The notes: generated from the letters alone by a model not told the origin. Counted from the first letter of the stretch, positions 32,583 to 54,261 are shown. The stretch is 64,000 nt of DNA from Pseudomonadota bacterium (GCA_017860615.1 JAGDMU010000007.1:6534-70533); one strand, 5' to 3'. A program made the numbers and translations.

Positions 32583-32748
32583 GTGGAAGAAGCTGTCGCA
32601 CTTTCCAAGGTAAAACACGCTAAGTGCGCCACGTTATACGGCAACAAAGCTTATGAGGTTGATGTCGAATCAACCTTAGTACGAGCCTTACCAGGCTTTA
32701 GTATCGTAGGAATCGCCGACCAATCCATCCAGGAGTCACGTGAACGTA
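32583..32748 (+). pseudogene. comM: comM (YifB/Mg-chelatase-like) 5' fragment, interrupted by the transposon
   Basis: CATLYG...VDVE...LPGFSIVGIADQSIQESRER; joins IKSAL at 54262 in frame once the element and one ACGTA copy are removed. Confidence 0.93.
32744..32748 (+). repeat. Target-site duplication ACGTA, left copy
   Basis: gaACGTA|tgtt; matches 54257-54261. Confidence 0.92.
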
Positions 32749-32754
32749 TGTTAA

Positions 32755-32814
32755 TCGTCAAAGACAATTGGACTTCGTCAAAGACAATTGGACTTCGTCA
32801 AAGATAATTGGACT
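32755..32814 (+). repeat. Three tandem 20-bp transposase-binding sites at the tnsE-like-proximal end
   Basis: tcgtcaaagacaattggact x2 plus tcgtcaaagataattggact, no spacers. Confidence 0.9.
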
Positions 32815-32831
32815 AAACTAGGTCTATCTCA

Positions 32832-34604
32832 ATGGATAAATTTAGCGATTTACTCCTCTTCGCTGATTTTTCCCAACAATACTCTGCTGAATTTGAACTA
32901 GGTTATCGATTTATCATTTACGTTATTGGTTCACCAAGGCGTACGCCTACAACTTCATACATTACAAGCCAATATCAAATTCCATTGTACATTCTTGCAG
33001 AATCATCTTCAAGTACAACCGAAAAATATAAGCTGTTAATTCATTATGTGCCTTTTGAATATATAGTAAGAATTTCAATAGGTGATGAAATCTTACCCAT
33101 GGGTAACATTCGCTATTTGGGTTCCTTATCTGATTTCAAATACACAAAAGATAAGAATGAAGGATTTTTAACAAAAAAAGCAGTCTCTATTTCAAAAGAA
33201 ACTATCAAAAATCCAATAATATGTACTTTATCAGAACTCATCACGAATTATGGCTTATTTAATAAAATACCGCAAGATCTATTAGATAGCAATGCAAAGG
33301 ACGAATGGTTTTATCTCTTCAAAACGGATGAAGGGTCTTTAGTTATTTCAGCAGTTGAGATTCTACGTCATTTTTATTTAGCCTCACCTGGTCCGTCATT
33401 GACTAACCATATTTTAGATCCAAAAGGCGTACAGAATTTATCACGTGGCATTACAACTGACAGAATGACGCGCAAAGGGAAGAAATACCCCTATTTTAAG
33501 ATTGATATCCATCCTTTCTCTCAAATGGTTGATATCAATAAAATTTTCTTCTTTAGCTGCTCAAGAAGAAACAAACAATACTTTTCAAGTATTGCTCATC
33601 ATTTTTTAAAAACACACAAACTTAACGCTCTCATACCAACATTGCGTACTCTTCATTTATCTGTAGATATATACAAACAAGGCGATTATTTTTTAATTAC
33701 AAAAATCCATGAAAGCAGTATTGCATCTCATATGCAAGACTGGATTGTTGATTATACCCACCCACAATCAAGACCTCATGTTATTAAACAAAAAGTTAAA
33801 CCACCTCAGATAGTTCAACGAGCTGATCCATCTAACGTGGTAAGTCATGTTCAGTATACAAACAAAAAAATCAAACCTAAAAAAATATCTGATAAAAGCC
33901 AATTTTTTGGTGAGGGAAAACTAGAAAACCCCAAATTTCCTCTGGGACCTACTTTTAAACATTTACCCAATGAAGAAGAACGAACAGTTACTGAGTCAAA
34001 TAAAATATCTAAAGACTTGGGAGATAGAGACATTGGACTAAGCGGTCGAGGCCTTAATAAAGACGGCCCTATTGCCGTAGAAACATATACTAAAAAAGAT
34101 AAAAGCCAGAAGAAAAAAGATGAAGCAGAGGAAGGCGAAGAAATTCAAAGCAAACAGACGTTATATGATGAAGAGATAAGCACTAAAATAATTGAAAAAA
34201 TAGCTCAAGAGTTTATAGCGCAAGGTTGCTCTGCTCACATACAATATAAAAGCGTTAAAAGACCCTATATCTCACAAAAAATCGTATACAAATCAATTAA
34301 ATATTATGTTGAAATTCTGATCCAAAAAGAAGAGCTACAGTTTGTTTACGTTGATATCTTAGCCAAACAATATACAGCGACTTCCGCAATTTATAATGAT
34401 AAAAAAGAAGTATTACTTATAAAACGCGATAAACAATTCAAAGATTACTACATCAAAAACTTGATTTATGATCAATTGGTAGAAGGCAACCATAAATGGG
34501 GCGCTAAATCACCTTATAAAAAGTTATTCACTTATTCAATGATCAAACATCGCCAAGATTTGAAATCATTTGTTGAATCTATTTTGGAGATTATGTCTCG
34601 CTAA
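32832..34604 (+). CDS. TnsE-like protein (590 aa, putative alternative target selector)
   Basis: Recalled Tn7 TnsE motifs match in order: ISAVEILRHFYL (IPQLELARSLFL), YFSSIAHH (YESIFRH), LHLSV...DYFLITKI (LHVKG...DYLVEEI), FVYVDI (FVLLEV), late W and H. Alignment is by eye only. Confidence 0.55.
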   Translation: MDKFSDLLLFADFSQQYSAEFELGYRFIIYVIGSPRRTPTTSYITSQYQIPLYILAESSSSTTEKYKLLIHYVPFEYIVRISIGDEILPMGNIRYLGSLSDFKYTKDKNEGFLTKKAVSISKETIKNPIICTLSELITNYGLFNKIPQDLLDSNAKDEWFYLFKTDEGSLVISAVEILRHFYLASPGPSLTNHILDPKGVQNLSRGITTDRMTRKGKKYPYFKIDIHPFSQMVDINKIFFFSCSRRNKQYFSSIAHHFLKTHKLNALIPTLRTLHLSVDIYKQGDYFLITKIHESSIASHMQDWIVDYTHPQSRPHVIKQKVKPPQIVQRADPSNVVSHVQYTNKKIKPKKISDKSQFFGEGKLENPKFPLGPTFKHLPNEEERTVTESNKISKDLGDRDIGLSGRGLNKDGPIAVETYTKKDKSQKKKDEAEEGEEIQSKQTLYDEEISTKIIEKIAQEFIAQGCSAHIQYKSVKRPYISQKIVYKSIKYYVEILIQKEELQFVYVDILAKQYTATSAIYNDKKEVLLIKRDKQFKDYYIKNLIYDQLVEGNHKWGAKSPYKKLFTYSMIKHRQDLKSFVESILEIMSR

Positions 34605-34620
34605 GAAACTGCCTTCTGTT

Positions 34621-34895
34621 TTCTCATTTAAAATATAAGAATTTGCACAAATCTTATATTTTGACCTTTTTTTTGGCATCAAAATATAAGAAATCACCAA
34701 AAAGTTATATTTTGATATAACGCTTTAGTATATTAAAATATCTTTTTTACCTTATAACTATGGATATGAAACTACCAAATTCCCAACTATTCTCAGTTTT
34801 CATATAAATGTTAAGAATATGCACAAAACTTATCATTTGACCTCTTTTTTGGTATCAAATGATAAGAAATCATCAAAATATTATCTTTTAATATA
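34621..34895. repeat. Two diverged ~99-bp direct repeats (period 176), each with two ~33-bp palindromes
   Basis: Copy 1 34621-34719, copy 2 34797-34895; half-sites aaaatataag/cttatatttt versus aaatg(a/t)taag/cttatcattt. Confidence 0.85.
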
Positions 34896-35057
34896 GCTTG
34901 GGGATAAAATATACGTATGAGAAAAGTATTATGAATAAAAGCTATTTTCCTATAGCACTTATCAAAACAATTTGAGAGATTCTACGTATATAGATATGTC
35001 ATAATTCCATACGTTAGGTTTACACGTTTGTTTCAAATTACATATTGAGGATGATAC

Positions 35058-35735
35058 ATGGCAGCGATTTATACAATAAATTATTATCAAACAACACCTC
35101 TAATATCGTCTCACATGCCATATGAAGCTTACGATAAAAGAAAAAAAATTAAACGACCTTGCACATTATGTGAATATGATGAAACTACTGCTGTTGTCAT
35201 ATGGAGCGACACTAGAAGGGAGGGTAAAGTCTTACTTCAAGACCTAGAATTTAAAGGAATTATCCCTCAAAATAGTGATATTCTGAAAATTGGGCTCATA
35301 ATTGATCCTATCCCATGTTGGAAATGCCATAAAATTTCTCATTCAATTTATGCAGTAGAAATAATTTATATGGACACTTATATACAACTGCATACACATG
35401 TTGAACCACAATTATTAGATAAGTTTGATCATACCATACTCAAGCAATATCAATTGGGAGAAGTGAAAGAACGATATAGCAAAACAATGCAACAAAGATA
35501 TTTATCAGAGGGTTGCTTCTATTGTGATGCACTTTTCGGTAAATTTTATCTTAGTGACTCTCGTCTGGAATATGAAATTACTCTAAGTTGGCCGGAAGCA
35601 TGTGATTATATTGAAATATCATATGAAGATTATTGCATGCTCAATCTGGGTCATTTTGTGGCATATAGACCAGATGAATTATTGCAATACCACAAATACA
35701 ATCACGAAGATGAAATTGACGAAGATATTTTTTAA
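35058..35735 (+). CDS. Hypothetical protein with three CxxC pairs (probable Zn-binding)
   Basis: CTLC, CWKC, CFYC; GAGG RBS. Confidence 0.7.
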   Translation: MAAIYTINYYQTTPLISSHMPYEAYDKRKKIKRPCTLCEYDETTAVVIWSDTRREGKVLLQDLEFKGIIPQNSDILKIGLIIDPIPCWKCHKISHSIYAVEIIYMDTYIQLHTHVEPQLLDKFDHTILKQYQLGEVKERYSKTMQQRYLSEGCFYCDALFGKFYLSDSRLEYEITLSWPEACDYIEISYEDYCMLNLGHFVAYRPDELLQYHKYNHEDEIDEDIF

Positions 35736-35743
35736 TGATATTG

Positions 35744-35938: not shown

Positions 35939-36024
35939 ATATATTAACTTTATATGATTACTTAGTATAATTATATTTCAATTGTGAAAGAAGCATATAG
36001 AAAATTTGCATAATTGGGATAACA

Positions 36025-36918: not shown

Positions 36919-36976
36919 CCTAAAACCTTAAAAAATAATAGGTTATGTAATTGTGCGATGGTTGAATAATAGACAT

Positions 36977-38540: not shown

Positions 38541-38599
38541 GTGGATTATTCTAACATAATTTTGATATTATGGCTTGAACAATAATACAAGGGATTATC

Positions 38600-38971: not shown

Positions 38972-40981
38972 ATGAAGCTATTGTATATACATATTGAAGA
39001 AGATTACAAGCACATCAAAGCTGGCGGATATTATTTCGATAAAGAGTTTAATGTTATAAATTTCAACACTACACCTGGACAAAGGAAAATTACATTAGAA
39101 ACAAACCCAAATTATCATAGACCGTTTAATCAAAATATCAATAATATCTCTTGTATTGTTGGGAAAAACGGTGTTGGAAAAACTACGTTTTTTGAATTGA
39201 TTATAGCTCCATTACTATGGAGATTAGATGGACCTCTTTTAGAGAATAAAATCCATTTACTTTATTATGATGAAATCGAAAAAGAATTTTATATCCAATC
39301 TTATACAGGTCAAGCAAATAATTGGGGACTATATTTAGATGGCCATAAAATACATCTTTTCAAAAATAAAAAAAATAATAGTACGAAAATAAATGTAGAA
39401 TCTGGCTCTACGTATAGATCCGTTTTTCCTTATCAAATGAATATTATTTTTCATAGCCTTTCTCCCTTTGATAGAATTTATGATTTATTGAAACTACAAT
39501 TATCAGATGCTTCGTATGGTCAAATAGAACACTATCGAAAAAGATTGAAATACATTGGTACACGACAAATAGAAAACAATGAAACAATCTATGAGTATAT
39601 GACTTTGATAAATTTGATCTCAATATTACTTGATAATAACTCAAAAGAAATGTTTAGTAAGTTAGGGTATGAGTATGGGAATATCGAAATTAATATAGTG
39701 AATGAAGAAGATGAACTTACTATTAATATCCCTGAATTTACTTCATTTAAAGATGAATCAAAAAAAATGTTGGAAGTTTTTTTTACAGAAGAATCATATA
39801 TGGAATTAAAAGAAAAATTATCTTTTTATTTGATTGCAGATTCAATTAATGGAGATTTTTTCAAAGAATTATTACTTAAAAGCGTAAAAATAGATACACC
39901 AAAAAGATTTCTTAATTTTTTATCAATAATAGCTGAAGAAAACCAAAATACAATTTCTTTAGAGACTATTATGGAAGCGATTTATCAATATCTATTAAAT
40001 TTAAATTTTCCAGAACAGATTAAAGAATTATGTACCAGTGAAAATTATAAATTTTTGACAGAAATCTTTGAAAATAAAAAGGAATTATTAACCATTGATC
40101 AATTTAGTGATAGTGAATATTTAAAAGAAAGAGTGAATAGCCCTGAGTTTTTAAAGCTTTTAAAATTTATTAAAAAGCTAGCAATTAGGAACCTTATTAA
40201 TTTTAAAATGTATTTGTTAAAAAAAGGGGAATCTTTTGATTATTTTAGGTTAAGTTCGGGGGAAAAAACATTATTATCTTATTTTGCAAATATCCTTGGG
40301 AGAATAAGAGAATTAGATGACATTCAAGCCGAAAATGCTACTTACTCCTCTATACAAAATAAATCTTACTTAATACTTATCGATGAAGTAGAACTTCATT
40401 TACATCCTGAATGGCAGAGAAACTTTATTAAACAATTAAATGAATTTTTTACTTATTTTGATAAAAGTAAAAAATTTCAATTTGTTATTGCAAGTCATTC
40501 TCCTTTTATTGTAACTGATATATACGATGAAAACATTATTTATTTGGGAGAGAACAACCCTAACACCAAAACATTTGGTGGGAATATATTTGATATTTTC
40601 AAGGATGATTTTTATGTGAGTAATACCATAGGTTCTTTTAGTGAAGGGATTATTAAAGATTTATCAGAAATCATCTATATCTTATTTGCTATACAAAAAG
40701 CTTTAAATGAAGGTAACTTTTTTATACTCAGAGAATACTTAGATTTGATGTATGAAACTTCCGAAAGAGAGGAAGAAAATAGAAAATTATTAGAGGAGCT
40801 TGTAACATTTTTGCAAGTAAAGAATAATAGTAAGTTTTCTAAACTTTCTACAAATCGCTTTCTTCCTTTAAAGGGAGATTTTATGCATGAATTTAACAAA
40901 ATCAAAAATAATATTGGTGAAGAAGTTGTTAGAGAACATTTCGATAAAATGTTAAATTATATACGAGAATCACATGCTTAA
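38972..40981 (+). CDS. ABC/SMC-type AAA ATPase, PtuA-like
   Basis: Walker A GKNGVGKT, signature LSSGEK, Walker B LILIDEVELHLHPEWQ, SHSPF; overlaps the HNH gene. Confidence 0.85.
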   Translation: MKLLYIHIEEDYKHIKAGGYYFDKEFNVINFNTTPGQRKITLETNPNYHRPFNQNINNISCIVGKNGVGKTTFFELIIAPLLWRLDGPLLENKIHLLYYDEIEKEFYIQSYTGQANNWGLYLDGHKIHLFKNKKNNSTKINVESGSTYRSVFPYQMNIIFHSLSPFDRIYDLLKLQLSDASYGQIEHYRKRLKYIGTRQIENNETIYEYMTLINLISILLDNNSKEMFSKLGYEYGNIEINIVNEEDELTINIPEFTSFKDESKKMLEVFFTEESYMELKEKLSFYLIADSINGDFFKELLLKSVKIDTPKRFLNFLSIIAEENQNTISLETIMEAIYQYLLNLNFPEQIKELCTSENYKFLTEIFENKKELLTIDQFSDSEYLKERVNSPEFLKLLKFIKKLAIRNLINFKMYLLKKGESFDYFRLSSGEKTLLSYFANILGRIRELDDIQAENATYSSIQNKSYLILIDEVELHLHPEWQRNFIKQLNEFFTYFDKSKKFQFVIASHSPFIVTDIYDENIIYLGENNPNTKTFGGNIFDIFKDDFYVSNTIGSFSEGIIKDLSEIIYILFAIQKALNEGNFFILREYLDLMYETSEREEENRKLLEELVTFLQVKNNSKFSKLSTNRFLPLKGDFMHEFNKIKNNIGEEVVREHFDKMLNYIRESHA

Positions 40982-41957
40982 GATTAGTCAAACATCTCAA
41001 AATGCAATATTGCATTATTTACAAAAAAATGATTATTGCACAGATAAAAAGATAAATGAAGCAACCTTTGGATTTTTAAATATACCTAATAGAACAAAAT
41101 ACTTTTTAAAAGACTTGCCATTTGAAGAAAATTATAAAATTTCTCATAGTACCTTAATGTCTCCCTATCATAATAATGAGAACATAATAGAGGCTTTTTT
41201 TGATAAGTTGCAAAGAGTCTATGGAGTGGGTTCTCGTGATATTTTTTATAATACAGGAAAAGATGATGAAGTAGATAAAACTCTTGATACTAATGAAGCG
41301 CAAGTAAAAGTTATTAAACTTTTTTTATTAAAAAAATACTCCAATATGTATAATAATTTTAGAAAAAATTATGGAAAAAGAGTTATTGAAGAAACAGGTA
41401 ATAATATCTGCCCATACTGTTATCGAAGTTATATTAGTGTTATTGAAGCAGAAACAGGAAAAAAATCATTAACTCCTGATTTAGATCATTTTTATCCAAA
41501 ATCAAGATACCCATTTTTAGCAGTTACATTATCAAATTTAGTTCCTTCATGCCTTTTATGTAACGAACGAGCAAAAAATGATCAAGATTTTTACAAAAAT
41601 TCTATATATCCACCACAAAAATTTTTTGATGAAATTGAATTCGATTATGATGTGTATCTAAATAAGATTTACATAAAAAACTATAAACAATTGATTATTG
41701 ACCCTAAATATAAAATACATTTAGATACTTTTTTAATTCAAGAAACCTATGCAACACATACAGAAATTTTACAAAACATCATCAATAAACATAAAAAATA
41801 TAAACAATCTAAGATTCAAGATTTGGTAAAACACACTGTAGGATTATCTGGAACGTATGTCAAAAAGATAGTTTTTTATGAGTATGAGTATATGAATAAA
41901 AAAACAGAATTACTGTATAAACTCAAAAAAGATTTATATGAAAAGATAATTAAATAA
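40974..41957 (+). CDS. HNH endonuclease, PtuB-like (Septu-type pair)
   Basis: CPYC...DLDHFYPKSRYPFLAVTLSNLVPSCLLCN. Confidence 0.85.
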   Translation: MLKISQTSQNAILHYLQKNDYCTDKKINEATFGFLNIPNRTKYFLKDLPFEENYKISHSTLMSPYHNNENIIEAFFDKLQRVYGVGSRDIFYNTGKDDEVDKTLDTNEAQVKVIKLFLLKKYSNMYNNFRKNYGKRVIEETGNNICPYCYRSYISVIEAETGKKSLTPDLDHFYPKSRYPFLAVTLSNLVPSCLLCNERAKNDQDFYKNSIYPPQKFFDEIEFDYDVYLNKIYIKNYKQLIIDPKYKIHLDTFLIQETYATHTEILQNIINKHKKYKQSKIQDLVKHTVGLSGTYVKKIVFYEYEYMNKKTELLYKLKKDLYEKIIK

Positions 41958-42259: not shown

Positions 42260-43696
42260 TTAATCTGATGGGTTTTCAATCTGTTGAATAGCATCATACG
42301 CACGTCTATGACCTAATTTATCCGCTTTACGAAGATACTCTATAGCATTTTTGTTTGAGTCTTCCGTACGCAATAATTCAACCCCTAAATTAAAAGCAAT
42401 ACTTGCATCATTAGGATCCAATGTAAATGCTTTTTTTAGAGCACGTACAGCTTCATCATGGCGGCCTAGTTCTACCAAAGCGCATGATACGTGATACCAA
42501 CCAGAAGCAATATCGGGATACTCATCTATCAGTTTAGCAAAACATTGAAGTGCTTTATTATGTTCTCCAGCATATCCATACACAACCCCTTTTAGATGAA
42601 TTAATGCACCAGTATCTTGTTTTGTCTTTAAATTTTCGTCTATTTGAAACAAGGCATCACCATATTTTTTTTGCTGAACGAGTCGCTCTATCATATGCAT
42701 AAATTCAACTTCCGTCAACGATTTGTCCTGCTGTTCTTCTTGGATATGCAGTTTATTTTTTAACTTTGGTTTCGTTACCACGATATCGTAAGGGACTTTT
42801 TCTATTTTATTGGCACCTTGTATCTTGCGTATTTTAAACAACGCAACTTCATTAGGTACATGCGCTTCGACCAACTCAATGTAGTGCTTTATTCGTTCAT
42901 CTGGACATAACATGCCAAAGATTATTTCAGTAATATCTCCAGGCCATTCAAATAAGCCTCCAAATGGTTCTACATATCGCCATTCTTCCTCATAACTCCA
43001 ACATGTATGCTTTGTAGTTATTGCTTTCTGAAATGTTTTGTCTGAAAATGCAACTTCATATCCTGAAACATATAGTTTAAAGTTTTCATCAACTGCAAAA
43101 GTCATTTCTGTATTAAAACCATTTTTATCCGTTAATGGCAATTCATCAGAATATATAATGGGTAAAAAGTGTTTTTCATTAGAAAGTTTGCATTCACCAT
43201 GATTGGAAAATCCGATACATATCCCCGTGTGGCTATTTCCATAGTGCGCCCACATTAAAGGATGGTCCGGCTTACATGAAAGACTAAAAATTCCAACTGC
43301 ATTTAACTGACGATCTATATGTAAAAATAAATTTAATGGGTTAGATGGGTAATGTCCTGTTTTTTCCATAATAAACTTTGCATATAAATCATACGATTCA
43401 TCTAAATTAACATGTCCTTTTATCATATTTAATAGTTTTTGTATTTCTTCCAGAGAAAGCCCATAAAAATCTCCATTTGATTTTTTTGCTTTCACCGCCA
43501 TATAGACAAACCCAGATACGGCAGCTTTTTTGAGTTTAAGTATTTGTTCTTCTATCCAAGTGTGACCAATATCCTGCAATGAGCATTCAAATGGATCATT
43601 CAAGCCTTCGGCTGTAGACAAATACACTTTTCCTGTCGTAAATATATCCTCGGTATATTTTGAATCTGAACGATACTTATAAAAAACTCGATTCAT
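42260..43696 (-). CDS. DUF2971-like domain fused to C-terminal TPR repeats
   Basis: YKYR, LNDPFE, LMWAHYGNSHTGICIGF, TK...WSYEEEWR; TPR-like repeats after about residue 330. Confidence 0.8.
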   Translation of the reverse strand: MNRVFYKYRSDSKYTEDIFTTGKVYLSTAEGLNDPFECSLQDIGHTWIEEQILKLKKAAVSGFVYMAVKAKKSNGDFYGLSLEEIQKLLNMIKGHVNLDESYDLYAKFIMEKTGHYPSNPLNLFLHIDRQLNAVGIFSLSCKPDHPLMWAHYGNSHTGICIGFSNHGECKLSNEKHFLPIIYSDELPLTDKNGFNTEMTFAVDENFKLYVSGYEVAFSDKTFQKAITTKHTCWSYEEEWRYVEPFGGLFEWPGDITEIIFGMLCPDERIKHYIELVEAHVPNEVALFKIRKIQGANKIEKVPYDIVVTKPKLKNKLHIQEEQQDKSLTEVEFMHMIERLVQQKKYGDALFQIDENLKTKQDTGALIHLKGVVYGYAGEHNKALQCFAKLIDEYPDIASGWYHVSCALVELGRHDEAVRALKKAFTLDPNDASIAFNLGVELLRTEDSNKNAIEYLRKADKLGHRRAYDAIQQIENPSD

Positions 43697-43907: not shown

Positions 43908-44579
43908 TTAAGTATTACAAAAATCTAAAAAGATATGTTGAATTTTTTTTATATTATTTTCGTCTTGATGATGTAGTGATTCATAACAATAAGGACAAGC
44001 AATTATTTTGTCACTTTTTTCCAATTTTTTTATGCAGTTAGCTGCTTGATAATTTTTGCGATTTTTAAATAATTGCATATTCAGGCTATTTATAATATTT
44101 TCAACTTTTCCATTTAAAACATACCCAACAATAGATCCATTTGTATATTTTTCAGTTCTAAAATTTTCTATTCCCGTATCAATGTATCTGTTTATATAGC
44201 TTGATGCTTTTTTGGTTCCATAGTTATTTTCGTATAAATTTTTAGCTTCAAAAAAATATTCTTTTGATTCTGGAGAATTCCAGTTAAATATTCTTATATC
44301 AATTATTGGTAATGATTTTGGATTGTTATGGCCAATTGGTAAAGTATCTTTAATGAGTGGATATTGAGGTGTGATATCTAAAGGATAATGATTAGTTAGA
44401 TCAGATTTTTTCATAAATGTTATTAAGTGGTTTGTGAACTGATCCTCAAACCACTTAAGATTAAATTGTTGATTCTCTAATGCTAAAAAATATGCTTCCA
44501 ATAAAAGTTTAAATGACAAAATACTAATCGGTGGAATATGGCATTTAGTCTTAGCTAATGTCTTCTTCGATAGCGCCAT
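43908..44579 (-). CDS. Putative PD-(D/E)XK nuclease partner of the methylase
   Basis: IIDIRIF...YFFEAKNL; start overlaps the methylase stop. Confidence 0.55.
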   Translation of the reverse strand: MALSKKTLAKTKCHIPPISILSFKLLLEAYFLALENQQFNLKWFEDQFTNHLITFMKKSDLTNHYPLDITPQYPLIKDTLPIGHNNPKSLPIIDIRIFNWNSPESKEYFFEAKNLYENNYGTKKASSYINRYIDTGIENFRTEKYTNGSIVGYVLNGKVENIINSLNMQLFKNRKNYQAANCIKKLEKSDKIIACPYCYESLHHQDENNIKKIQHIFLDFCNT

Positions 44580-47500
44580 TAATACATACTCATTATCTCT
44601 AAAGTTATATTTTGAGCGTCTTCAATGGCACTCGATAGATTCCAAAATCTTTTTTGATTCGGTTTAACAACATAAATTTTATCATCGTCAAAGTACGTTA
44701 AATTTTTTTGCACATATATACCTTTTGAGTATTCGCGTAAAGTATACCGATTGAGCATTGATAATATATGATTGAACTCTTTTTCAGCGTAAGTTATAAT
44801 ATGCTTATCTATTTCTTTTCCTACTTTATCAACAAACTGGAGTACTACTAAAGCAAGAGGACTAAAATGAGATATTTGATAAACAGTAGATATTATTTCT
44901 AGCTCACTATCTTTTAAAGTTTGATTTAATTCATAACACAACTTCTTGCTGTATTCGATAGATTCTGGAGATTTAGAATTTAATGGCTTCATCGAGATTG
45001 ACTTATCGCCTTTATGAAATAAATCTACTTTATACTTAATTGCGTCATCTATTAATATTCTCTCATTTTGAGAAAAATCAAGAATATCATAAATCGTATT
45101 ATTAATCTCATTTTCATTAACTTTATGATGAGATTCCCCAATAATACGATCAATAGTATTTGCTATTTCATGGATTTTATCATTATCTATATTCGGCAAT
45201 GGTAACTCTAAATATTCATCTAACATGATTTGTTCTCTTTCAACCGTATACGAAGAAGCAGTCATTAACAAAAAATAATGAGCATAGTTTGAGCTAAATA
45301 CTACAGATAAATATTTTAAAATAATTTCATTTTTTGTTTCAGAATAGAACCCGTAAACACCGTCTCTAAAGGAACAATCATAATCTATATATGAGCCACA
45401 TATTTGATTCCCAGATATAAATCCTTTTTTCAATACAAAATGCGGTGCTTTAAAAATTTCTGGATACTTCGCCGTCATATTAAATTTAGTTATCTGTGGT
45501 ATGTCTCTTAAAGTAGTGGCTTGATAGATTTCTAAATAAACTTTTTGAGTTGGTAGAGTTGCCTCTTTAAGAGAATCATTGATTGGATAATTGCTATTAA
45601 CAGTATATAGCCTATTGATTGTAGATGCCTTTAAATATGGGAGTTTACATAAATCTTGATCTTCTTTCACAATCCTTTTTCTATTTGATAATAACTGAAA
45701 TCCAACACCATGTTTAATGTTGTTTTTCTTAGCAAAATCCATAAAAGAGATACTTTTGTTTAATAACCTATTTAATAAATTAAAATCATTTAAATTACCC
45801 CATTGTGCAATTTTCCATATCTTTGTATTAGGCTTTTGACATTCAAATCGTGGTAAATACTTTATGTCACTAGAATCGATAATAATACCCTCTGCCAAGT
45901 GATTTTTTATATATGTCTTAGGAGACCAATACTCTATTGTTTTGGATGGATTTGTAGGAATTTTTGATTGAAAAAAATATATAGAAGCGGGAACGACAGC
46001 TGATGAGAATAGTTGTCCGCCAAATGCTTTTGGAGCTTTTCTGAGTATAGATAAATTATATATTTTTTCTACATAATTCTCATTAAAAAGCCATTTCCTG
46101 AAATTTTGTGAAGGCTGTTGAGTTTTAGTCAATAGCTTAGTAGGTGCCAAAAGTGCTATTTTTCCATTAGGTGCTAAGAGTGTTGATTTATATATAAATG
46201 GTATAACGAATTCTGGTGGAAAATTTCTGTCCTGACAATACTGTTTAATGTGTATTGGAGCATTTTCGCCATAAGGAGGATTTCCGACAATAACATCATA
46301 ATCTTTTTCAATCTCTTTATTGTCAATAATAGTATCTGTTCTATATAGGTTATACCCTTGTTTAAGTAAAGTATTGTCATCTTTATCATTAATTAAGTAT
46401 GGAAATTTTTCTTCACCTTGATACCACAACGTTGCAGGATGTAAAAAGTCAAGCATGGCCAAATACAAACTAAATGTTGTAACCTTAATAGAATTTTTAT
46501 TTAGTTCTATACCGTAAATACTATAATGCATTAATTCTTTTAATATTTTAAAGTCTACACCTTTATTGGGGTGAGCTTTTTGCCACCTTTTTACAATTCT
46601 TTTGTAAGCTTCAACCAAAAAAATACCTGAACCGCAAGTTGGATCTAAAATTTTAACTTTATAGTCTTGACTATCGATTGGTAAAACCTCATTTAGCATA
46701 AGTTCAACCAATTCAGGAGGCGTATAATAACTCCCACTTAGTTCTTTGTCTATTTCACTTAAAAAATTTTCATATATTTGACTTAAAAGCTCAATATTTA
46801 TTATGTCAAATTTAAAAATTCTCCAGTCACTAAATAGATTTTCATTTTTTATTTCACCATTGATAAAACATTTTTTTAATAATTGTAAATGTTTCCCTTT
46901 GATCGTTTCTCGCTCAAGCTCAGTTACTGGAAATACATTACCATTAAAATTTTCTTTTATTCTGCCAAAAAAAGCGTATGTTGCTTCCTCATCTTCCAAC
47001 AAATCAAAATATGAATTTACTTCTTTATTTTTGCCTTTATAAAATTCTTCGGGAGTAGCCTTTTTATCTTCAAGGTACATAATAAAGAGCGATCTCATGA
47101 TAAGCGCATGAATAATATCTAAACTAATACCATCTTGTTTAAATACCTTAGCTAAATTTACAAGGCTTGCAACTAGAAACTTATCAATTCGTTTGTCTAA
47201 TTTTATTTTTTTGAGATATTCATTATTTCTTGTCCAAATTGAACCGCTATCAACTGCATGAGCTGAAAATATTTCAACAAGTTGACTCAGCTTTTCCTTA
47301 TCATCAAACCCACTCGCTACTATTTCATGATTTTTTAATATACCTTGAATATCTTTTGAATCATTGTTAAATGCAACTGGTTTACTATTGCAATTGTAAA
47401 TTCTTATTTCTGTTAATGCCGTAACATATAGGAACGTTACTTTTTTGAAGTTCCATAAATTATGATGAGTCTTTGCAATTTCTCTTATTGTTTCTTCATC

Positions 47501-47635
47501 AAATTGCAAGACTTCTTTAAAAAAGACTGTTGGATATTTACCTGAGTAATGGATTTTATCAATCCCTAATTCTTTTTCACGCTTAGAGGCTTCATGAATA
47601 TTGTTAAATTGTAAAATCTCATAAAATTTACTCAT
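44579..47635 (-). CDS. Large N6-adenine DNA methyltransferase (type IIG/Eco57I-like architecture)
   Basis: GSYYTP, motif I LDPTCGSGIFL, motif IV VGNPPY, long C-terminal TRD-like region. Confidence 0.88.
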   Translation of the reverse strand: MSKFYEILQFNNIHEASKREKELGIDKIHYSGKYPTVFFKEVLQFDEETIREIAKTHHNLWNFKKVTFLYVTALTEIRIYNCNSKPVAFNNDSKDIQGILKNHEIVASGFDDKEKLSQLVEIFSAHAVDSGSIWTRNNEYLKKIKLDKRIDKFLVASLVNLAKVFKQDGISLDIIHALIMRSLFIMYLEDKKATPEEFYKGKNKEVNSYFDLLEDEEATYAFFGRIKENFNGNVFPVTELERETIKGKHLQLLKKCFINGEIKNENLFSDWRIFKFDIINIELLSQIYENFLSEIDKELSGSYYTPPELVELMLNEVLPIDSQDYKVKILDPTCGSGIFLVEAYKRIVKRWQKAHPNKGVDFKILKELMHYSIYGIELNKNSIKVTTFSLYLAMLDFLHPATLWYQGEEKFPYLINDKDDNTLLKQGYNLYRTDTIIDNKEIEKDYDVIVGNPPYGENAPIHIKQYCQDRNFPPEFVIPFIYKSTLLAPNGKIALLAPTKLLTKTQQPSQNFRKWLFNENYVEKIYNLSILRKAPKAFGGQLFSSAVVPASIYFFQSKIPTNPSKTIEYWSPKTYIKNHLAEGIIIDSSDIKYLPRFECQKPNTKIWKIAQWGNLNDFNLLNRLLNKSISFMDFAKKNNIKHGVGFQLLSNRKRIVKEDQDLCKLPYLKASTINRLYTVNSNYPINDSLKEATLPTQKVYLEIYQATTLRDIPQITKFNMTAKYPEIFKAPHFVLKKGFISGNQICGSYIDYDCSFRDGVYGFYSETKNEIILKYLSVVFSSNYAHYFLLMTASSYTVEREQIMLDEYLELPLPNIDNDKIHEIANTIDRIIGESHHKVNENEINNTIYDILDFSQNERILIDDAIKYKVDLFHKGDKSISMKPLNSKSPESIEYSKKLCYELNQTLKDSELEIISTVYQISHFSPLALVVLQFVDKVGKEIDKHIITYAEKEFNHILSMLNRYTLREYSKGIYVQKNLTYFDDDKIYVVKPNQKRFWNLSSAIEDAQNITLEIMSMY

Positions 47636-47642
47636 GAATGTC

Positions 47643-47876
47643 CTAAAAAAAATAATCTTCGAGTCGAATATTTTTCGTTTCTAATACTTTTAAGCATTTA
47701 AAGAAAAATACTGCATTAAATGCACCCCTACTCATTTTATTGTTAAATGAATATTCCGTAAGCTCTTCACCATCTTTATTTAATCGCTCGACCAAGTCTC
47801 TTACATGTAAATTTTTTTTTGCAAGTTCTGACTTGATGATTCTTTTTGGTACGTCTTTAATATCCATATCCAACAC
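47643..47876 (-). CDS. DUF6471-like small HTH protein
   Basis: IKSELAKKNL...DLVERL...SFNNKMSRGAF; 7 nt upstream of the methylase. Confidence 0.7.
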   Translation of the reverse strand: MLDMDIKDVPKRIIKSELAKKNLHVRDLVERLNKDGEELTEYSFNNKMSRGAFNAVFFFKCLKVLETKNIRLEDYFF

Positions 47877-48212: not shown

Positions 48213-49310
48213 TTATTTCAAATACCGATACCCACTCATCCACTGATAACCAGTAATCTCTGCAAATCTTTTTGCAGTTAATTTTTCATTTTTAGACAAA
48301 TACGCCTTAATACTCTCCACCTCTCCTTTACTAAGTGGACGCATAACTTCGACACACTCCTCCAAGGGTTTTAAAAACCAAAAAGGTAAATCTCTACAGT
48401 TATTTTTTCTTTCGTATTTTTCTAGAATTCGTGGCTTATTTGTTATTTTACGTCGTTTAAAAAAGTATTGAAACTGATACGGCCAATTTTGAAAAAGCTC
48501 CACAGATCTTTTGATGATTCTAAACATCTGTCTTGTAGTAAATTGTTCAGGGAAAATTTGATGCCTCTTCAAATCATTTTGAACTATTTTCTTCCAATAA
48601 CTAGCATGACTCATATGTCTCGTAAATATCCTCAGCACATAAAAATAACTCATTGAATAGTACCATCTACCATTCAATATAAAATAGCCTCGTTTTGCAA
48701 TACTCAAAAGCCTTCTAATAGCTTTTAGCCCTTCTGAATATTGTGGAATCATAATAGGTGTTCTATCTAATAAATTTGCTCCACATTTAAAACAAAACTC
48801 CATACCTTGATCTTCTAGTGAATAAACCGATGCAAGCGGAGATCCACACTTTGGACACTGTGACTCAAGAAAACAACAATGTTTTGTACAAGCATTCACA
48901 AAATAAAGCTTCCACTCTTTTTTATAATAAGCATTTTCTTTTAGACATAAAGGACAATAACACAGCCCTCTCTCGCGTTGATGATATTTTATATCATGCG
49001 ATAAAGTTACTATCCAGCGCTGCTTTCCTTTGCCATTAATAGTTTCTTGGATATACCCTTCATAGCTTTTAAGGCGCATTTGTTGTATTCGCTCAATGCT
49101 CACATCCGTACACTCGGACAAAGTTTGCCAAAAGCTTTCAGGGTACTCATAAATATCAATATCTTTGTTGAAGTAACTTTTACCTGCCCAATGTTGCGAA
49201 AAGAGTCCTACAACGGTTGTAAAGTTAGCCTTTGCAATACGTGTTAGCCACGAAGAAAGAAGCTCGCCCTCAAATGGTTCGACAGTAAACAACCATTTTT
49301 GAGCTGACAT
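48213..49310 (-). CDS. tniQ: TniQ/TnsD-family target selector
   Basis: PFEGELLSSWLTRIAKAN, CPLCL, CTKH..FLESQCPKC, CFKC; about 200-aa C-terminal extension. Confidence 0.9.
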   Translation of the reverse strand: MSAQKWLFTVEPFEGELLSSWLTRIAKANFTTVVGLFSQHWAGKSYFNKDIDIYEYPESFWQTLSECTDVSIERIQQMRLKSYEGYIQETINGKGKQRWIVTLSHDIKYHQRERGLCYCPLCLKENAYYKKEWKLYFVNACTKHCCFLESQCPKCGSPLASVYSLEDQGMEFCFKCGANLLDRTPIMIPQYSEGLKAIRRLLSIAKRGYFILNGRWYYSMSYFYVLRIFTRHMSHASYWKKIVQNDLKRHQIFPEQFTTRQMFRIIKRSVELFQNWPYQFQYFFKRRKITNKPRILEKYERKNNCRDLPFWFLKPLEECVEVMRPLSKGEVESIKAYLSKNEKLTAKRFAEITGYQWMSGYRYLK

Positions 49311-49312
49311 AG

Positions 49313-50203
49313 CTATTTCCTCCGATCACTTGGTCTTTCGTATGGAATTGACTCAAGTATTTCTAAATCAATCGATTCTTTATTATTTTGAATCGCATAA
49401 ATTGTAGATTTTGTAAGAATTTTGGCAACTTCTCCAATTAAACCTTCACTCATCCAATGGATCTTTTGTACAAGAGATTTACGATGTAAACGAGAGGGTT
49501 CACGAAGTGGCAACGTCTTCTCAAAACTCATAAGAAGCCTTGCAAAATCTTCATTGAGTTCCCACGTATCAAGCCGCAAGGTATCAAAACGCCTCGCAAT
49601 CTGTGTTTCAGAAGAGAGTGTGCGTTGCACCTCTGGCACGCCTGCTACTACAACACTTACTTTTGCATTGGTACCAAGTTGTTTGAGCGCTGAAAGAAAT
49701 TTTGTTTGTTCTCTAAGACCACCATGATAGATATCCTGCATTTCATCAATAATAATCATCTTTGTACCCAAAGCACTAAGAATATTTTCTACCTGCTTTT
49801 CTTTACGTGAAGATGATTCTGTCGTTAGGTATGGTACATTCAAAGCATCCAAGATTTTTTCATAAAGAATATTCGAAGAAGGTGCAATGGGTGCTGAAAA
49901 ATAGACTATTGGAATATGATTTTGGCCTCCCTTTAAAAAAGAGGGATGTTGTTCCATAAAATAATTGAGTATCGTTGTTTTACCATTGTTGCTATCCCCA
50001 ACAATAGTGAAATGTTGCATTCGATTATTCGCTTTTTCCAGGAAAGCGATTTCAAGTTCATTGAGAATACTAAGTGCTTGAGGATATGGTATCCACACTT
50101 TTTCTTGAGCTTTTTGAATCCGCTCAATCGGTGTTTTCAATAAAACAGCTCGAACACCTTCTAAAAGTGATGCTTGATGATCTAATATCTCTTTTTCACT
50201 CAT
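49313..50203 (-). CDS. tnsC: TnsC/TniB AAA+ ATPase
   Basis: GDSNNGKT, MIIIDEMQD, QIARRF, SEGLIGEV. Confidence 0.9.
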   Translation of the reverse strand: MSEKEILDHQASLLEGVRAVLLKTPIERIQKAQEKVWIPYPQALSILNELEIAFLEKANNRMQHFTIVGDSNNGKTTILNYFMEQHPSFLKGGQNHIPIVYFSAPIAPSSNILYEKILDALNVPYLTTESSSRKEKQVENILSALGTKMIIIDEMQDIYHGGLREQTKFLSALKQLGTNAKVSVVVAGVPEVQRTLSSETQIARRFDTLRLDTWELNEDFARLLMSFEKTLPLREPSRLHRKSLVQKIHWMSEGLIGEVAKILTKSTIYAIQNNKESIDLEILESIPYERPSDRRK

Positions 50204-52098
50204 TTGTCACCTCTTTCAGATATTCCCTCAAACGGTTTGATGTTTGAAAACATATCTTCATCACCTTCTTCAAAAGTCTCTTCGTTCACACTAGGAACTA
50301 TTGACTTCGCTGGCTTAGATTCATTAATGACCGGTGATGCTTTGAGTTTAATGGCTCTTTCATTTTTTTTACGAGTCTGAAGAGTTTTTTGGGCAGCATC
50401 TTTTTCAAGGTTTTTCATCCTCTCGATTGAAAGGAATACATCATGTTCACTATGTTCTCTACGCTCATCGGCATCCAATTTCTTCTTAACTGCACAATAT
50501 TCCCAAAGCGAGACGCCTGTCGCTTTTGCTCTACGATCTTTAAGTGGGATGCTGTGATACTGCTTTGTATCAGGATCATAGAAATAAATGAGACTGATAT
50601 CTCGTGGATCTCTTCGTATGAGATACGTTTTAGAGCTTTTTCCATGTTTATCTAAAGAGCGTGGTATAAAGCTATTGAGCACATCAGAGTAATACGTAAT
50701 CCCATCTAAAACAATTCCGTAGCGCTGGATGGTTCTTTCATCATAGGGGAGAAGATTTAATCGAAGTCTTGCAGCATCTTTTTTCTCAGCTCTCATTATC
50801 CTTCCACGAGGTGGTGTATTTGGTCCACCAAGCATTCCTTCTAGATAGCGGGCTATTGGACTTTTTCCCAAAGCTGAGTGAACTTTATGATGGTACACTT
50901 CTGTAATTAAAATAGTAAGCCACTTTTCAAATTCTTCAAGCGTCATATTGGCATGTTTGACAGAATCGTAAGTTCCTTTTTGGGTGATATTTGAAAAAGT
51001 GGTTCCTTTGAGTGTGTGAATATCTTCATTGAGAGTTCTGACCAAACGCTCAATATGCCCTCCAAAATTCGGACGACCAACAGGGCGCCATACTGCTGTC
51101 ATCTTGTACTCTTTGCAGACCATTTCAATATCTTTACCTCTAAACTCTTTTGCATTATCCATATGAATCATGCTAGGGAAACCTTCAAGTGGCCATTTCG
51201 TTTGAATGCCATATTTTACGAGAATTTCATCTTTTGAGAGAATTGCATTGGCCAAGCATTGCCCCGTCCCAAAATAACCTGGTGAATCGAATGAAATGTA
51301 AAAACCTGCGATCATCCGACTGTAAACATCAATGGCTAGTGTAATCCAAGGACGACCAATTACTTCTCGATGCTTACTATCCACCAATTCAATATCTACT
51401 CGTGTATGATCTATTTGTATAACTTCCAAAGGATAATTACCATCAGGAAACTCCCCTTTTATCGGATAAAGAGGATGAACTGATTTTTTACCTTCGCGTT
51501 TTTTCATGCTAATGCGCTTATCTAACGCTTCCACTCGCCTTCCTATAGTTGCTAAACTAGGAGGTTCAATATTCGCATTTCTGCATCTAAGCACAATATC
51601 TTCATAGGTTTTTTGAACGGTTGGTTTTTGTTCAGAGAGATAATACTCATCCAAGGCACTGGCAATAATAGCTTCAAGTTCTTCAGCTAAACGCGATTTA
51701 CCTTTACCACCAGTAGTTCCTTCATAAATTAAAGAAGTCAAACGCTGTGTTTTTTCATAAGCCTTCAACCAATTATAGATACTACTTGAAGCGACATTGC
51801 ATTCTTTAGCCCTTTGATTGACTTTTTCTCTTGTTCTATTTTCCAAAAGTGGTTCAATGATTTTAAAACGTTCTTCGGCTTTTTTTAAATGATGTTCTGG
51901 TACTTGCGATAGGTCTTCATAGACAGTATCTTGCCTTTCTTCTTCAAGCTCACTAGAGAGGTCTTGAATAAAAAGTGTTTCGATTTTTCCCGTTGCGAGA
52001 TTTTTTGCTAAAACTTTATCAATATCCAATAATTTACGAATTTCATACTCTTCATTCTGGTAAAAGACATGTGTTCCGCTTCGTATATCAAGGCTCAT
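50200..52098 (-). CDS. tnsB: TnsB DDE transposase
   Basis: IQIDHT (D), HMDNAKEF (D), GHIERL (E); GRPWITLAIDVYSR; Mu-transposase-like C-terminus. Confidence 0.93.
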   Translation of the reverse strand: MSLDIRSGTHVFYQNEEYEIRKLLDIDKVLAKNLATGKIETLFIQDLSSELEEERQDTVYEDLSQVPEHHLKKAEERFKIIEPLLENRTREKVNQRAKECNVASSSIYNWLKAYEKTQRLTSLIYEGTTGGKGKSRLAEELEAIIASALDEYYLSEQKPTVQKTYEDIVLRCRNANIEPPSLATIGRRVEALDKRISMKKREGKKSVHPLYPIKGEFPDGNYPLEVIQIDHTRVDIELVDSKHREVIGRPWITLAIDVYSRMIAGFYISFDSPGYFGTGQCLANAILSKDEILVKYGIQTKWPLEGFPSMIHMDNAKEFRGKDIEMVCKEYKMTAVWRPVGRPNFGGHIERLVRTLNEDIHTLKGTTFSNITQKGTYDSVKHANMTLEEFEKWLTILITEVYHHKVHSALGKSPIARYLEGMLGGPNTPPRGRIMRAEKKDAARLRLNLLPYDERTIQRYGIVLDGITYYSDVLNSFIPRSLDKHGKSSKTYLIRRDPRDISLIYFYDPDTKQYHSIPLKDRRAKATGVSLWEYCAVKKKLDADERREHSEHDVFLSIERMKNLEKDAAQKTLQTRKKNERAIKLKASPVINESKPAKSIVPSVNEETFEEGDEDMFSNIKPFEGISERGDK

Positions 52099-52732
52099 AG
52101 ATACTCTCCAAGATAGTGTATAACGACAATTTTACATTCAAGTCTACTTTGATTTTCTTATATCGTACAAGTGCCCAAAGTGTTGGCACAATGTCTATTT
52201 GTTCAGAAGGGTCTGGGGTGATTTTTGCGAGTAATTCATTTAAGCGGTTAAAAGGAGTGAAAGCAGTATAAATTTTTTCATACTGCTTCGGGTCAATGTA
52301 TTCGTAATCTAACAAAAATTTGATATTCCAAAACAAGTCTTCATTTTGCAAATAAGGGCATCTTTCGGTGAAAATACGAAAAGTCCAATTCTTTTTTTGT
52401 TTGCAAAATTCTATTGCTGCACGAAATTTATGTTCAAACTCGTCAAATTTCTCCAGTAACTCACTGCGATATTTTACTTCACCTAAAATGTAAGAACCAT
52501 CATTTAGTGTGAGTAAGAAATCAGGAGTATAGGAGCGATCTTTGCCTTGAAACTCATATTCAATAGTTAATGGCTGATCATCAAAAGCTTTGATTTGAGG
52601 TAAATAATCAAAGAGGAAGTAAAAATCTCGTTCAAGCTTAGATTCAAAAGAGACAAAACCATGCAAAGCTTTATTGGAGCCAATTTTGCCAGTGATATTG
52701 CGATAGTTTTTAGGGATTTTGCGTTTTCCCAT
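52088..52732 (-). CDS. tnsA: TnsA endonuclease
   Basis: FESKLERD, QPLTIEY, YTPDFL, GEVK. Confidence 0.9.
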   Translation of the reverse strand: MGKRKIPKNYRNITGKIGSNKALHGFVSFESKLERDFYFLFDYLPQIKAFDDQPLTIEYEFQGKDRSYTPDFLLTLNDGSYILGEVKYRSELLEKFDEFEHKFRAAIEFCKQKKNWTFRIFTERCPYLQNEDLFWNIKFLLDYEYIDPKQYEKIYTAFTPFNRLNELLAKITPDPSEQIDIVPTLWALVRYKKIKVDLNVKLSLYTILESIYEP

Positions 52733-52783
52733 TTCAAAATTACCTCGCTTAAGATACTTTTAGCTTGCTAATTCTTTAAAATT

Positions 52784-53518
52784 TTATACCCAATATTGTT
52801 TAATGTCTTCAATTGGATCACTCGCTTTAGTGCGGTGCACCATTGCATGGCAATTTGGACAAAGAGGCACCAAATCTTGCGTCGGTTTTACACTGTAATT
52901 TTTCTTTATTTTATTTAATGGAATAATGTGATGAACATGAATAAATCCATCACCAAGTTCTCCATATTTCTGCGTAAAATCAAATTTGCAAATAAAACAT
53001 TTACACCCATAATGCCTTATACAAGCATCTCTAGCTGCTTTATTTCTTTCATACGCATTAACTTGTGTCTGTATCATACTTCCTTCTGGGTAACCATCCT
53101 CAGGAACACGGTTTTCATCTTCTGGATAGGTTATATTTTGCGATAGTACCCGTTGAACTTCAATTTGTTTCTCTAAAGTATCAAGATAGGTAATCCGACG
53201 ACTTAAAATATCAGTTGACAACCTTTCATTTGAATAAATAATTTCAATATTTGTCATTTTATAACCATGTGGATACTGTATATTCTTCAAGTCTTGCTTA
53301 TATTTACCAGTATAGACAGCTTTTGCCACAATATAACCATCAAAAGAATAATAAACAGTTGACCCTTTATAAAATTTTTCTGGGTTGCGTTTACGAAAAT
53401 CAAAAAAGAAATTATGCCTCTCCTTAGGCAAGGTTTCATAAAAATATTCACGTGCACCATGAATATCTAGCTCTCCAAATGCATCTACATTTTTTCCCAA
53501 TCTAAATAATAAATCCAT
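52784..53518 (-). CDS. McrA-like HNH endonuclease with an uncharacterised N-terminal domain
   Basis: EG...YERNKAARDAC...CFICKFDF...IHVHH...LCPNCHAMVH. Confidence 0.85.
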   Translation of the reverse strand: MDLLFRLGKNVDAFGELDIHGAREYFYETLPKERHNFFFDFRKRNPEKFYKGSTVYYSFDGYIVAKAVYTGKYKQDLKNIQYPHGYKMTNIEIIYSNERLSTDILSRRITYLDTLEKQIEVQRVLSQNITYPEDENRVPEDGYPEGSMIQTQVNAYERNKAARDACIRHYGCKCFICKFDFTQKYGELGDGFIHVHHIIPLNKIKKNYSVKPTQDLVPLCPNCHAMVHRTKASDPIEDIKQYWV

Positions 53519-53579
53519 AATGATCCTCTATTGTAAGAATATTTTAGAGTATATGAATGCTAATAATGAACTTATTGTA

Positions 53580-53795
53580 TTATAATCTATTAAAGTTCTC
53601 TGATTCCATTTGTTTAAGAGCTTCATCTTTATTGGAAGCTTCAAAAATTCCGGTTCTCTCAAAATCTATGCTGGTATATCTTGATCTTTCCACTTTTGCC
53701 GCTTCTCTATTTTCATATGGTCCACATAAGATATTTTGACCTCTCTCAGTATGTGCATTCGAATTATAATTACTTACCCCAAAATAAAACATCAT
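53580..53795 (-). CDS. Small hypothetical protein
   Basis: 71 aa, AAGGAG RBS, co-oriented with the HNH and tns genes. Confidence 0.6.
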   Translation of the reverse strand: MMFYFGVSNYNSNAHTERGQNILCGPYENREAAKVERSRYTSIDFERTGIFEASNKDEALKQMESENFNRL

Positions 53796-54123
53796 GTTCT
53801 CCTTTTAGATCTTAAATTAATTTACAAAAGATATTTTATAACTTATATAATATAATGTATATACTATATAATAAGTGCTTTTAGTTGCGCAGAAGAACTA
53901 GAGACATATGAAAGTACTACAAGGCTTAATCTTACGGTAATCATTTACTAAAATCTATGTGTAACCTAATTATTAGCAATCAATCCATTACCCTTAATAT
54001 AACTTTATTTTTTGTAAAAGTGAGTTATTCAATATTAAATAACTCGTATATACTACATAAAATCAACAGGATAGAACTTAGAATGTGTTATTATTATTTT
54101 ATGAATACAAGATGCTAATGAAT

Positions 54124-54256
54124 AATCCAAGTATCTTTAAAATTTTTGGAGGTTAGTCCAATTGTCTTTGAATAAAGTCCAAGTATCTTTGTCACAAAAC
54201 TATAGTAAATACTATATTTTTATGCTATTTGGTCTAATTGTCTTTGAAAAATTACA
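54124..54256 (-). repeat. tnsA-proximal transposon end with four transposase-binding sites
   Basis: Sites at 54124-54140, 54155-54171, 54176-54192 and 54231-54247, reverse complements of tcaaaga(c/t)a(a/c)ttggact; terminal CA at 54255-54256. Confidence 0.88.
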
Positions 54257-54261
54257 ACGTA
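54257..54261 (+). repeat. Target-site duplication ACGTA, right copy
   Basis: ttaca|ACGTAtaaaa. Confidence 0.92.

Follow-up and report, generated by a model that had tools for sequence, protein, structure and literature searches.

Our analysis of a 64,000-nucleotide stretch of DNA from an assembly named Pseudomonadota bacterium (GCA_017860615.1, JAGDMU010000007.1:6534-70533; hereafter the window, with positions counted from its first letter) identifies a Tn7-like transposon that splits comM and belongs, within Campylobacterales, to a small Tn7-like lineage that had not been described before. The attachment (att) site of this lineage, at comM codon ~55, is specific to the family and was likewise previously undescribed. 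As the overall best explanation, which we regard as probable, we propose a functional-looking lineage free of TnsF and of CRISPR, in which TniQ would act as a TnsD-like selector of comM and TnsE would provide a plasmid pathway.

The element proper, as read from the window, spans positions 32749-54256 (21,508 bp) and has TGT...ACA termini (element start TGTTAATCG; element end ...AAATTACA). It is bordered on both sides by the 5-bp target-site duplication ACGTA (32744-32748 and 54257-54261), the left junction reading ...GAGTCACGTGA ACGTA / TGTTAATCGTCAAAGACAATTGGACT... and the right junction ...GTCTTTGAAAAATTACA / ACGTA TAAAATCAGCTC.... On the left lies the 5' fragment of comM (32583-32748, plus strand; codons 1-55 and the left copy of the duplication, translated as VEEAV...QESRER), which is in frame with the 3' part on the right (54261-55631, plus strand; codons 56-511). 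Joining the flanks with a single copy of ACGTA yields an uninterrupted open reading frame (ORF) of 511 amino acids (aa; ...QESRER/IKSALSSINF...) and, because its 3' part matches Pfam ChlI, Mg_chelatase (with the Walker B motif VLFFDE) and Mg_chelatase_C, we assign this ORF to ComM. The frame is split after codon ~55, within the ChlI/Lon-like domain at the N-terminus (roughly position 28 of 121 in the ChlI N-terminal profile). The right end of the element, the one close to tnsA, faces the comM 3' part. Copies of the TnsB-type repeat TCAAAGACAATTGGAC are found at both ends. The left end (32749-32814, plus strand) consists of the terminal TGT and three tandem 20-bp TnsB-site repeats (TCGTCAAAGAC/TAATTGGACT; 32755-32814), and the right end (54126-54256, minus strand) carries repeats at 54156, 54177 (weak, with three mismatches) and 54232 followed by the terminal ...ACA. 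At this 20-bp spacing all close relatives have two left-end repeats and the window has three, suggesting a recent 20-bp duplication in the window.

Between these ends, the core genes are all encoded on the minus strand: tnsA (52088-52732; a 214-aa endonuclease; Pfam Tn7_TnsA-like_N, 2e-18), tnsB (50200-52098; a 632-aa DDE transposase with Mu-transpos_C and HTH_Tnp_Mu_2, and with rve scoring under its curated cut-off, at 25.0 vs 32.6 bits), tnsC (49313-50203; a 296-aa, short TniB-type AAA+ regulator; Pfam TniB, 1.9e-52) and tniQ (48213-49310; 365 aa; Pfam TniQ, 6e-21), the proposed att-site selector. The features that define a Tn7-like element are all present, with TnsA and TnsB encoded together, TniB and TniQ in one operon, TGT...ACA termini with repeats, a 5-bp duplication, and a site and orientation common to the relatives. 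A genome search found this to be the sole Tn7-like core in the window genome. The original prediction had described an intact Tn7-like transposon with a full tnsA-B-C-tniQ set, with TG...CA ends, an ACGTA duplication and exact restoration of the comM frame at about codon 55. The ends, the duplication and the restored frame can all be read in the sequence, and the Pfam matches agree with the gene assignments; judged from its sequence, the element is intact and looks functional.

The insertion in the window is not a one-off event. The junction evidence comprises nine left and five right junctions from three Campylobacterales families, with differing flank sequences and cargo. When the sites of the relatives were tabulated, as the original prediction had suggested, every relative with a readable junction was found at the same position of comM and in the same orientation, apart from one decayed copy that is 2 bp off. 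Left junctions at the identical comM nucleotide position are seen in L031, L032/33/34, L035, L036, L150, L151 and L142, and right junctions in L037, L041 and L154. Insertion takes place between codons of the conserved ...E-S-K/R-E-R/I/V-K-S-A-L... motif, where the slash after the second R marks codon ~55, and the 5-bp duplications of the relatives mirror the sequence of their own hosts (ACGTA, GAGAA, GCGTA, ACGCA, GCGCA and GCGTG). All close homologues of TnsE (76-85% identity) and of TniQ (75-85%) come from contigs derived from metagenomes. A more distant member, represented by L041/L142, is flanked by GCGTG on either side, again at this codon position, carries a CBASS cargo and is 43% (TniQ), 62% (TnsB) and 34% (TnsE) identical to the window element; its comM is 83% identical to that of a non-Sulfurimonas Sulfurimonadaceae genus, g71. 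The decayed copy is a distant member of ~22.9 kb in Aliarcobacter vitoriensis CECT 9230 (L062/L143, NZ_PDKB01000005.1; TnsB 45% and TniQ 34% identity), which is bordered by GACAG on either side, lies 2 bp upstream of the usual position and has a right terminus of TAT instead of TGT and a stop codon in tniQ. A contig with two-partner secretion (TPS) genes 360 bp from tnsA and no visible end (L039) was considered as a counter-example and rejected, given that its sister contig L154 shows these genes to be cargo and places the right end next to comM codon ~54.

In a TnsB tree of 97 proteins, the lineage forms a single clade (SH-aLRT, the Shimodaira-Hasegawa-like approximate likelihood ratio test, 99) beside other Campylobacterota elements. 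A search of species representatives in GTDB with the TniQ alignment returned no loci, and of the 80 loci returned with the TnsB alignment only A. vitoriensis belongs to the lineage. Among the relatives found, no lineage copy lies at any site other than comM codon 55, the left-end motif is absent from IMG/VR viral contigs, and no plasmid-borne lineage copy was found in the plasmid collection, where TnsB matches were all below 60% identity (38.7% for the best among the matches listed).

How, then, is comM found? Tn6022 needs TnsF (Orf3, 476-498 aa), a protein with N-terminal zinc fingers and XerH-like CB domains that is encoded just after, and in overlap with, tniQ (PMC10293859; PMC11014353) and that binds the Walker-B region of comM and directs insertion there (PMC10293859). 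In the window, Walker B lies ~245 codons downstream of the insertion point at codon ~55, making the att site of this lineage a different one from the TnsF site. Moreover, the genes following tniQ are a 71-aa ORF and then one for a DUF6471 protein, with no TnsF at the place it has in Tn6022. We searched for TnsF with the 476-aa protein of the Acinetobacter baumannii pAB3 Tn6022-like element (12 CxxC) by tblastn and with a hidden Markov model (HMM) built from five sequences, namely pAB3 TnsF and the TnsF proteins of L030, L086, L124 and L136. Both approaches recover TnsF in these four loci at E-values of 1e-26 to 1e-235, and in the window, as in the full set of six-frame ORFs of the genome (99.97% complete), the best values did not go beyond E=0.68-0.9, even with the HMM filters off. 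The element likewise contains no CRISPR-like repeats or array, no Rfam match and no Pfam or NCBIfam matches to Cas proteins. The earlier claim of an element with neither TnsF nor CRISPR is thus borne out by searches that all came back empty. Of the two observations that the original prediction named as refuting it, relatives at unrelated sites and a TnsF homologue, neither was made. The possibility that a small ORF or a non-coding guide is conserved downstream of tniQ was also considered and rejected: this region shows no conservation in six relatives, no Rfam match and no array.

Comparison of the window element with L037, L038/L154, L041 and A. vitoriensis shows that only tnsA, tnsB, tnsC, tniQ and tnsE are conserved. 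Three stretches vary among relatives: the DNA that follows tniQ, the slot from tnsA to the right end, and the gene that comes after tnsE. TnsE does not track the codon-55 site, because homologues also occur in an element at the other comM site (L050). We therefore infer that TniQ is the direct, TnsD-like selector. An AlphaFold2 (AF2) model of TniQ (predicted local distance difference test, pLDDT, 83) has a zinc ribbon, a helical domain and a C-terminal helix-turn-helix (HTH), and its Foldseek matches are the TniQ/TnsD structures 9gs9, 8fcu and 6v9p and the TnsD structure 8v32. In the model, the similarity to TnsD (8v32_J) is global, with a single predicted terminal HTH of three helices (residues ~328-364; helices 328-340, 346-353 and 357-364) and an HTH-like sequence pattern. 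The C-terminal half of TniQ is common to the lineage, and its alignment with Tn6022 TniQ is confined to the N-terminal ~180 aa, the rest being unrelated in sequence. The original prediction had named an "extended" TniQ as the probable means of targeting. TniQ is not extended: at 365 aa the protein is about as long as the TnsF-requiring TniQ of Tn6022 (369-371 aa), and it is the C-terminal half that differs.

In the model that we propose, TniQ would function as a compact TnsD, predicted to bind a conserved stretch of comM that lies on the right-end side, just downstream of where the element is inserted, with the lineage-specific C-terminal half and the terminal HTH as the proposed DNA reader. 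The putative binding site is the first ~100 bp of the comM 3' part. The conserved coding sequence that, as in Tn7, faces the tnsA-proximal end reads ...KSAL..F.FP..K[IL]T[IV]NL[SA]PS.., and in three widely differing hosts AAATCAGC is invariant shortly after the duplication, at +3 to +10 on the right-end side. TniQ bound at this site would recruit TnsC, and TnsC would position TnsAB; TnsE would open a second way, leading into conjugal plasmids or replication forks. A variable defence cargo would be carried along and comM would be inactivated as a by-product, possibly to the benefit of the element. Loss of comM impairs natural transformation, and the idea of the original prediction that disruption of comM shields the element from being cured by transformation is speculation from this role of ComM.

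Several points weigh against this model. TniQ has the same length as the TniQs of Tn6022 and of type I-F3 CRISPR-associated transposons (CASTs), which are unable to find targets alone, and its single terminal HTH offers far less surface for binding DNA than Tn7 TnsD does with its multi-HTH C-terminus. Within the lineage TnsE and TniQ are conserved with equal strictness, so that conservation alone leaves room for a role of TnsE; a conserved host factor bound at comM may be an alternative; and almost all relatives are metagenomic contigs, with none seen on a plasmid. It is conceivable, if unlikely, that TniQ is a mere adaptor and that comM is read by an unrecognised partner, either a host protein or an element protein not homologous to TnsF. 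Such an arrangement would resemble that of the 365-400-aa TniQs of Tn6022 and type I-F3 CASTs, which need TnsF or Cascade (PMC10293859; PMC11014353), and the best Foldseek matches of the window TniQ are indeed adaptor TniQs. However, no gene of the element beyond the five core genes is conserved, the DNA downstream of tniQ and in the tnsA slot is unrelated between relatives, and a host partner would need to be common to three bacterial families.

The one conserved gene outside the tns operon, tnsE-like, encodes a 590-aa protein (32832-34604, plus strand), adjoins the left end and reads inward, opposite to the tns operon. It is kept in all relatives, always at the left end. The protein has no Pfam or NCBIfam match, Pfam TnsE_C finds no direct match anywhere in the window genome, and only 16 relatives were found among 1.84 billion representative proteins. 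An AF2 model built from 18 sequences (pLDDT 72 overall and ~90 for the N-terminal 310 residues) has as its top seven Foldseek matches in the PDB the C-terminal domain of TnsE (5d17, 9d5l and 5d16; prob 0.95-1.00, target-normalised TM-score 0.50-0.65), in addition to a weak match to PriB (3fhw). In TnsE, this domain is preceded by an OB/PriB-like N-terminal region. In hhalign, the profile of the family matches with 97.3% probability a 580-aa protein of another element from Campylobacterales (L050), which is encoded at the equivalent place and passes the gathering cut-off of Pfam TnsE_C. The link to TnsE is thus structural and, via L050, transitive. Alignments of the family to Orf4 of A. baumannii Tn6022 and to a 517-aa protein of L045 were not significant in hhalign; for Orf4 this is consistent with the extreme divergence reported among TnsE branches. 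From the modelled C-terminal fold together with the L050 homologue, we conclude that the 590-aa protein is a divergent TnsE, and not an unknown factor. Two other readings of the protein, as a concealed TnsF and as a new selector, were considered and rejected: it has few cysteines, no zinc fingers and the TnsE C-terminal fold.

Could this TnsE-like protein nevertheless have been re-purposed, alone or with TniQ, as the comM selector? The protein is present in every relative, always in the same place, and it is so divergent that the window copy lacks a Pfam match and detectable likeness to Orf4. The DNA-binding C-terminal fold of TnsE is present, however, the homologue that passes TnsE_C belongs to an element at the other comM site, and nearly all elements that target glmS or comM have a TnsE homologue, the presumed role of which is a sequence-independent targeting of plasmids or replication forks (PMC11406308). 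We consider such a re-purposing quite unlikely.

A further explanation holds that the location in comM reflects a single old insertion that was inherited vertically or spread by homologous recombination, and several relatives within one genus do share the same def-comM synteny. Yet the comM site is empty in 24 other species of Sulfurospirillum, the genus of the window, whose sequences align to the joined flanks without a break, implying that the insertion is not ancestral. The site is occupied in Sulfurospirillaceae, Sulfurimonadaceae-like and Arcobacteraceae hosts with ComM proteins only ~50% identical, each copy having a matching duplication of its own, and the elements themselves differ in sequence (TniQ 33-85% identity) and in cargo. 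This explanation is very improbable and largely refuted. Because Tn6022 strictly needs TnsF, we also considered that another part of the genome provides TnsF, or a Tsy-type element, in trans. Nothing was found in favour of this reading, and it is hardly credible, given the lack of a TnsF match in the genome-wide searches, the fact that TnsF steers to Walker B and not to codon 55, and the use of the same site in hosts of three families.

Similarly to Tn6022/AbaR of Acinetobacter, the window element has a heteromeric TnsAB, a short TniB-type TnsC, a TniQ in the ~365-370-aa range, a tnsE-type gene at the far end on the opposite strand, a 5-bp duplication, a single orientation inside comM with the right end toward the comM 3' part, and accessory cargo; Tn6022 encodes its tnsE on the opposite strand (PMC10293859). 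Unlike Tn6022, it lacks TnsF/Orf3 and is inserted at codon ~55 in the ChlI N-terminal domain rather than in the Walker-B region near codon 300. Moreover, its TnsB is ~35% identical to that of the pAB3 Tn6022-like copy and falls in a separate clade of the TnsB tree, its TniQ aligns with Tn6022 TniQ over the N-terminal part only, and its TnsE has no detectable likeness to Orf4/TnsE. The element therefore departs from Tn6022 in two features that define the latter, TnsF and insertion at the Walker-B site. With Tn7 it shares the C-terminal fold of TnsE and, by inference, a two-pathway logic in which a TniQ-family protein addresses a conserved chromosomal coding sequence by the right end and TnsE addresses mobile DNA. 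In Tn7, TnsD is ~500 aa long and has several HTH domains at its C-terminus, and insertion downstream of glmS leaves that gene undisrupted, whereas the window element has a 365-aa TniQ with one terminal HTH, disrupts its target gene and has a short TniB-type TnsC.

Tn7-like elements that reach comM independently of TnsF have a precedent in type I-B1 CAST variants, which home to comM by CRISPR RNA (crRNA; PMC11406308). In contrast to these systems, which use Cascade and a guide RNA, the window element is without cas genes, array or Rfam match. Tsy, a tyrosine-recombinase (YRec) transposon with an active TnsF, also inserts in comM, but it does so without a Tn7 core, using YRec and TnsF at Walker B, and none of these genes is found in the window element. 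The element is thus neither a CAST nor a Tsy; the description that suits it best is that of a Tn7-like transposon whose att site in comM is new.

The premise of the original prediction, that targeting of comM implies TnsF, is itself weakened by a survey of 19 loci of many phyla in which a Tn7-like right end adjoins comM at ~codon 300, i.e. at Walker B. TnsF was detected in three (L086, L124 and L136) and was undetectable in the other 16 (L043-L046, L049, L050, L076, L082-L085, L088, L092, L104, L119 and L121), among them L045, a complete 8.5-kb element with TnsABC, a 411-aa TniQ, a Tsp45I restriction-modification (R-M) pair and the 517-aa protein without family. If the survey holds up, TnsF-independent targeting of comM would be widespread, and the TnsF-less majority at Walker B would give TniQ-only recognition a greater general interest. 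The suggestion that the lineage targets comM convergently is uncertain. In the TnsB tree, the nearest clades include Walker-B comM elements that are also without TnsF, so that the lineage is as likely to have moved from one site to another within comM as to have captured the gene independently.

Other arrangements were observed at or near the Walker-B site. In a Sedimenticola sp. metagenome-assembled genome (MAG), TniQ and TnsF are fused in a 973-aa protein with TniQ and Phage_int_SAM_4 domains and 15 CxxC (L086:12700-15621); Faure et al. 2023 reportedly mention a single TniQ-TnsF fusion, to which this one is similar. A different Tn7-like element in the genus of the window (L047, genome G114), with a TnsB that clusters with those of Walker-B-site elements, has the comM 3' part (codons ~298-511) on the strand of tniQ and downstream of it, in an orientation opposite to the usual one, and may represent a rearrangement or an inverted insertion. 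In Nitrosophilus labii (G084), near-identical Tn7-like cores are found on the 102-kb plasmid NZ_AP022827 (L048, G084:C2) and in the chromosomal comM Walker-B site (L049), the plasmid copy adjoining a second, partial tnsA-tnsB pair.

The remainder of the window element is largely cargo. Between tnsE and the next gene lie two copies of a ~106-nt unit (34614-34895), 80% identical, 176 bp apart and without an Rfam match. The next gene encodes a 225-aa Cys-rich protein without a family match (35058-35735, plus strand), of which copies with 87-94% identity follow tnsE in some relatives (L031, L036 and L150), making it better conserved between relatives than TnsE (77-81%). L032 and L035 have in its place an unrelated Nmad2-domain protein of the same size and use the same insertion site, and the Cys-rich protein was for this reason rejected as a stand-alone zinc-finger selector. 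Further inward are a Septu-like two-gene defence system consisting of a 669-aa AAA ATPase and a 327-aa HNH protein (38972-41957, plus strand; PADLOC PDC-M62A/B, PtuA/PtuB-like), a DUF2971-TPR protein (42260-43696, minus strand; the PADLOC candidate system PDC-S31), and a group of three genes for the 77-aa DUF6471 protein, a 1018-aa type IIG-like restriction-methylase and a 223-aa partner (43908-47876, minus strand). A 244-aa HNH endonuclease (52784-53518, minus strand) occupies the slot between tnsA and the right end, which holds other genes in L037, L041 and L154. In L154 this unusual place accommodates ~10.6 kb of cargo with a ShlB-type transporter and a 2474-aa TPS exoprotein (L154:5285-15590). 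The window element additionally encodes a prepilin-like protein and several proteins without family match. The defence cargo announced in the original prediction is thus present and can be named as Septu-like PDC-M62, PDC-S31 and type IIG R-M. Overall, the cargoes of the lineage include Septu-like, type IIG R-M, McrBC, Wadjet, CBASS and Dnd-like systems, a UvrD-nuclease and a two-partner secretion system.

comM is the best-known gene targeted by transposons on purpose, and to our knowledge the routes to it described so far depend on either TnsF (Tn6022 and Tsy) or crRNA (type I-B1 CAST). With the lineage described here there is a third route, and a second position in comM that is defined precisely, apparently with a small TniQ alone. 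In our judgement, the chances are about even that a compact 365-aa, single-HTH TniQ together with TnsABC suffices for this second comM att site, in which case TnsF would be the exception rather than the rule and comM would have been captured repeatedly, at at least two positions, by direct recognition of the TniQ/TnsD type. The five genes tnsA, tnsB, tnsC, tniQ and tnsE make up a compact system with a conserved natural target, and the TniQs of the codon-55 lineage, of the TnsF-less Walker-B elements and of the TnsF-dependent elements provide a comparison set for how TniQ gains DNA specificity. Finally, these elements document a traffic of defence islands into comM in environmental Campylobacterales.

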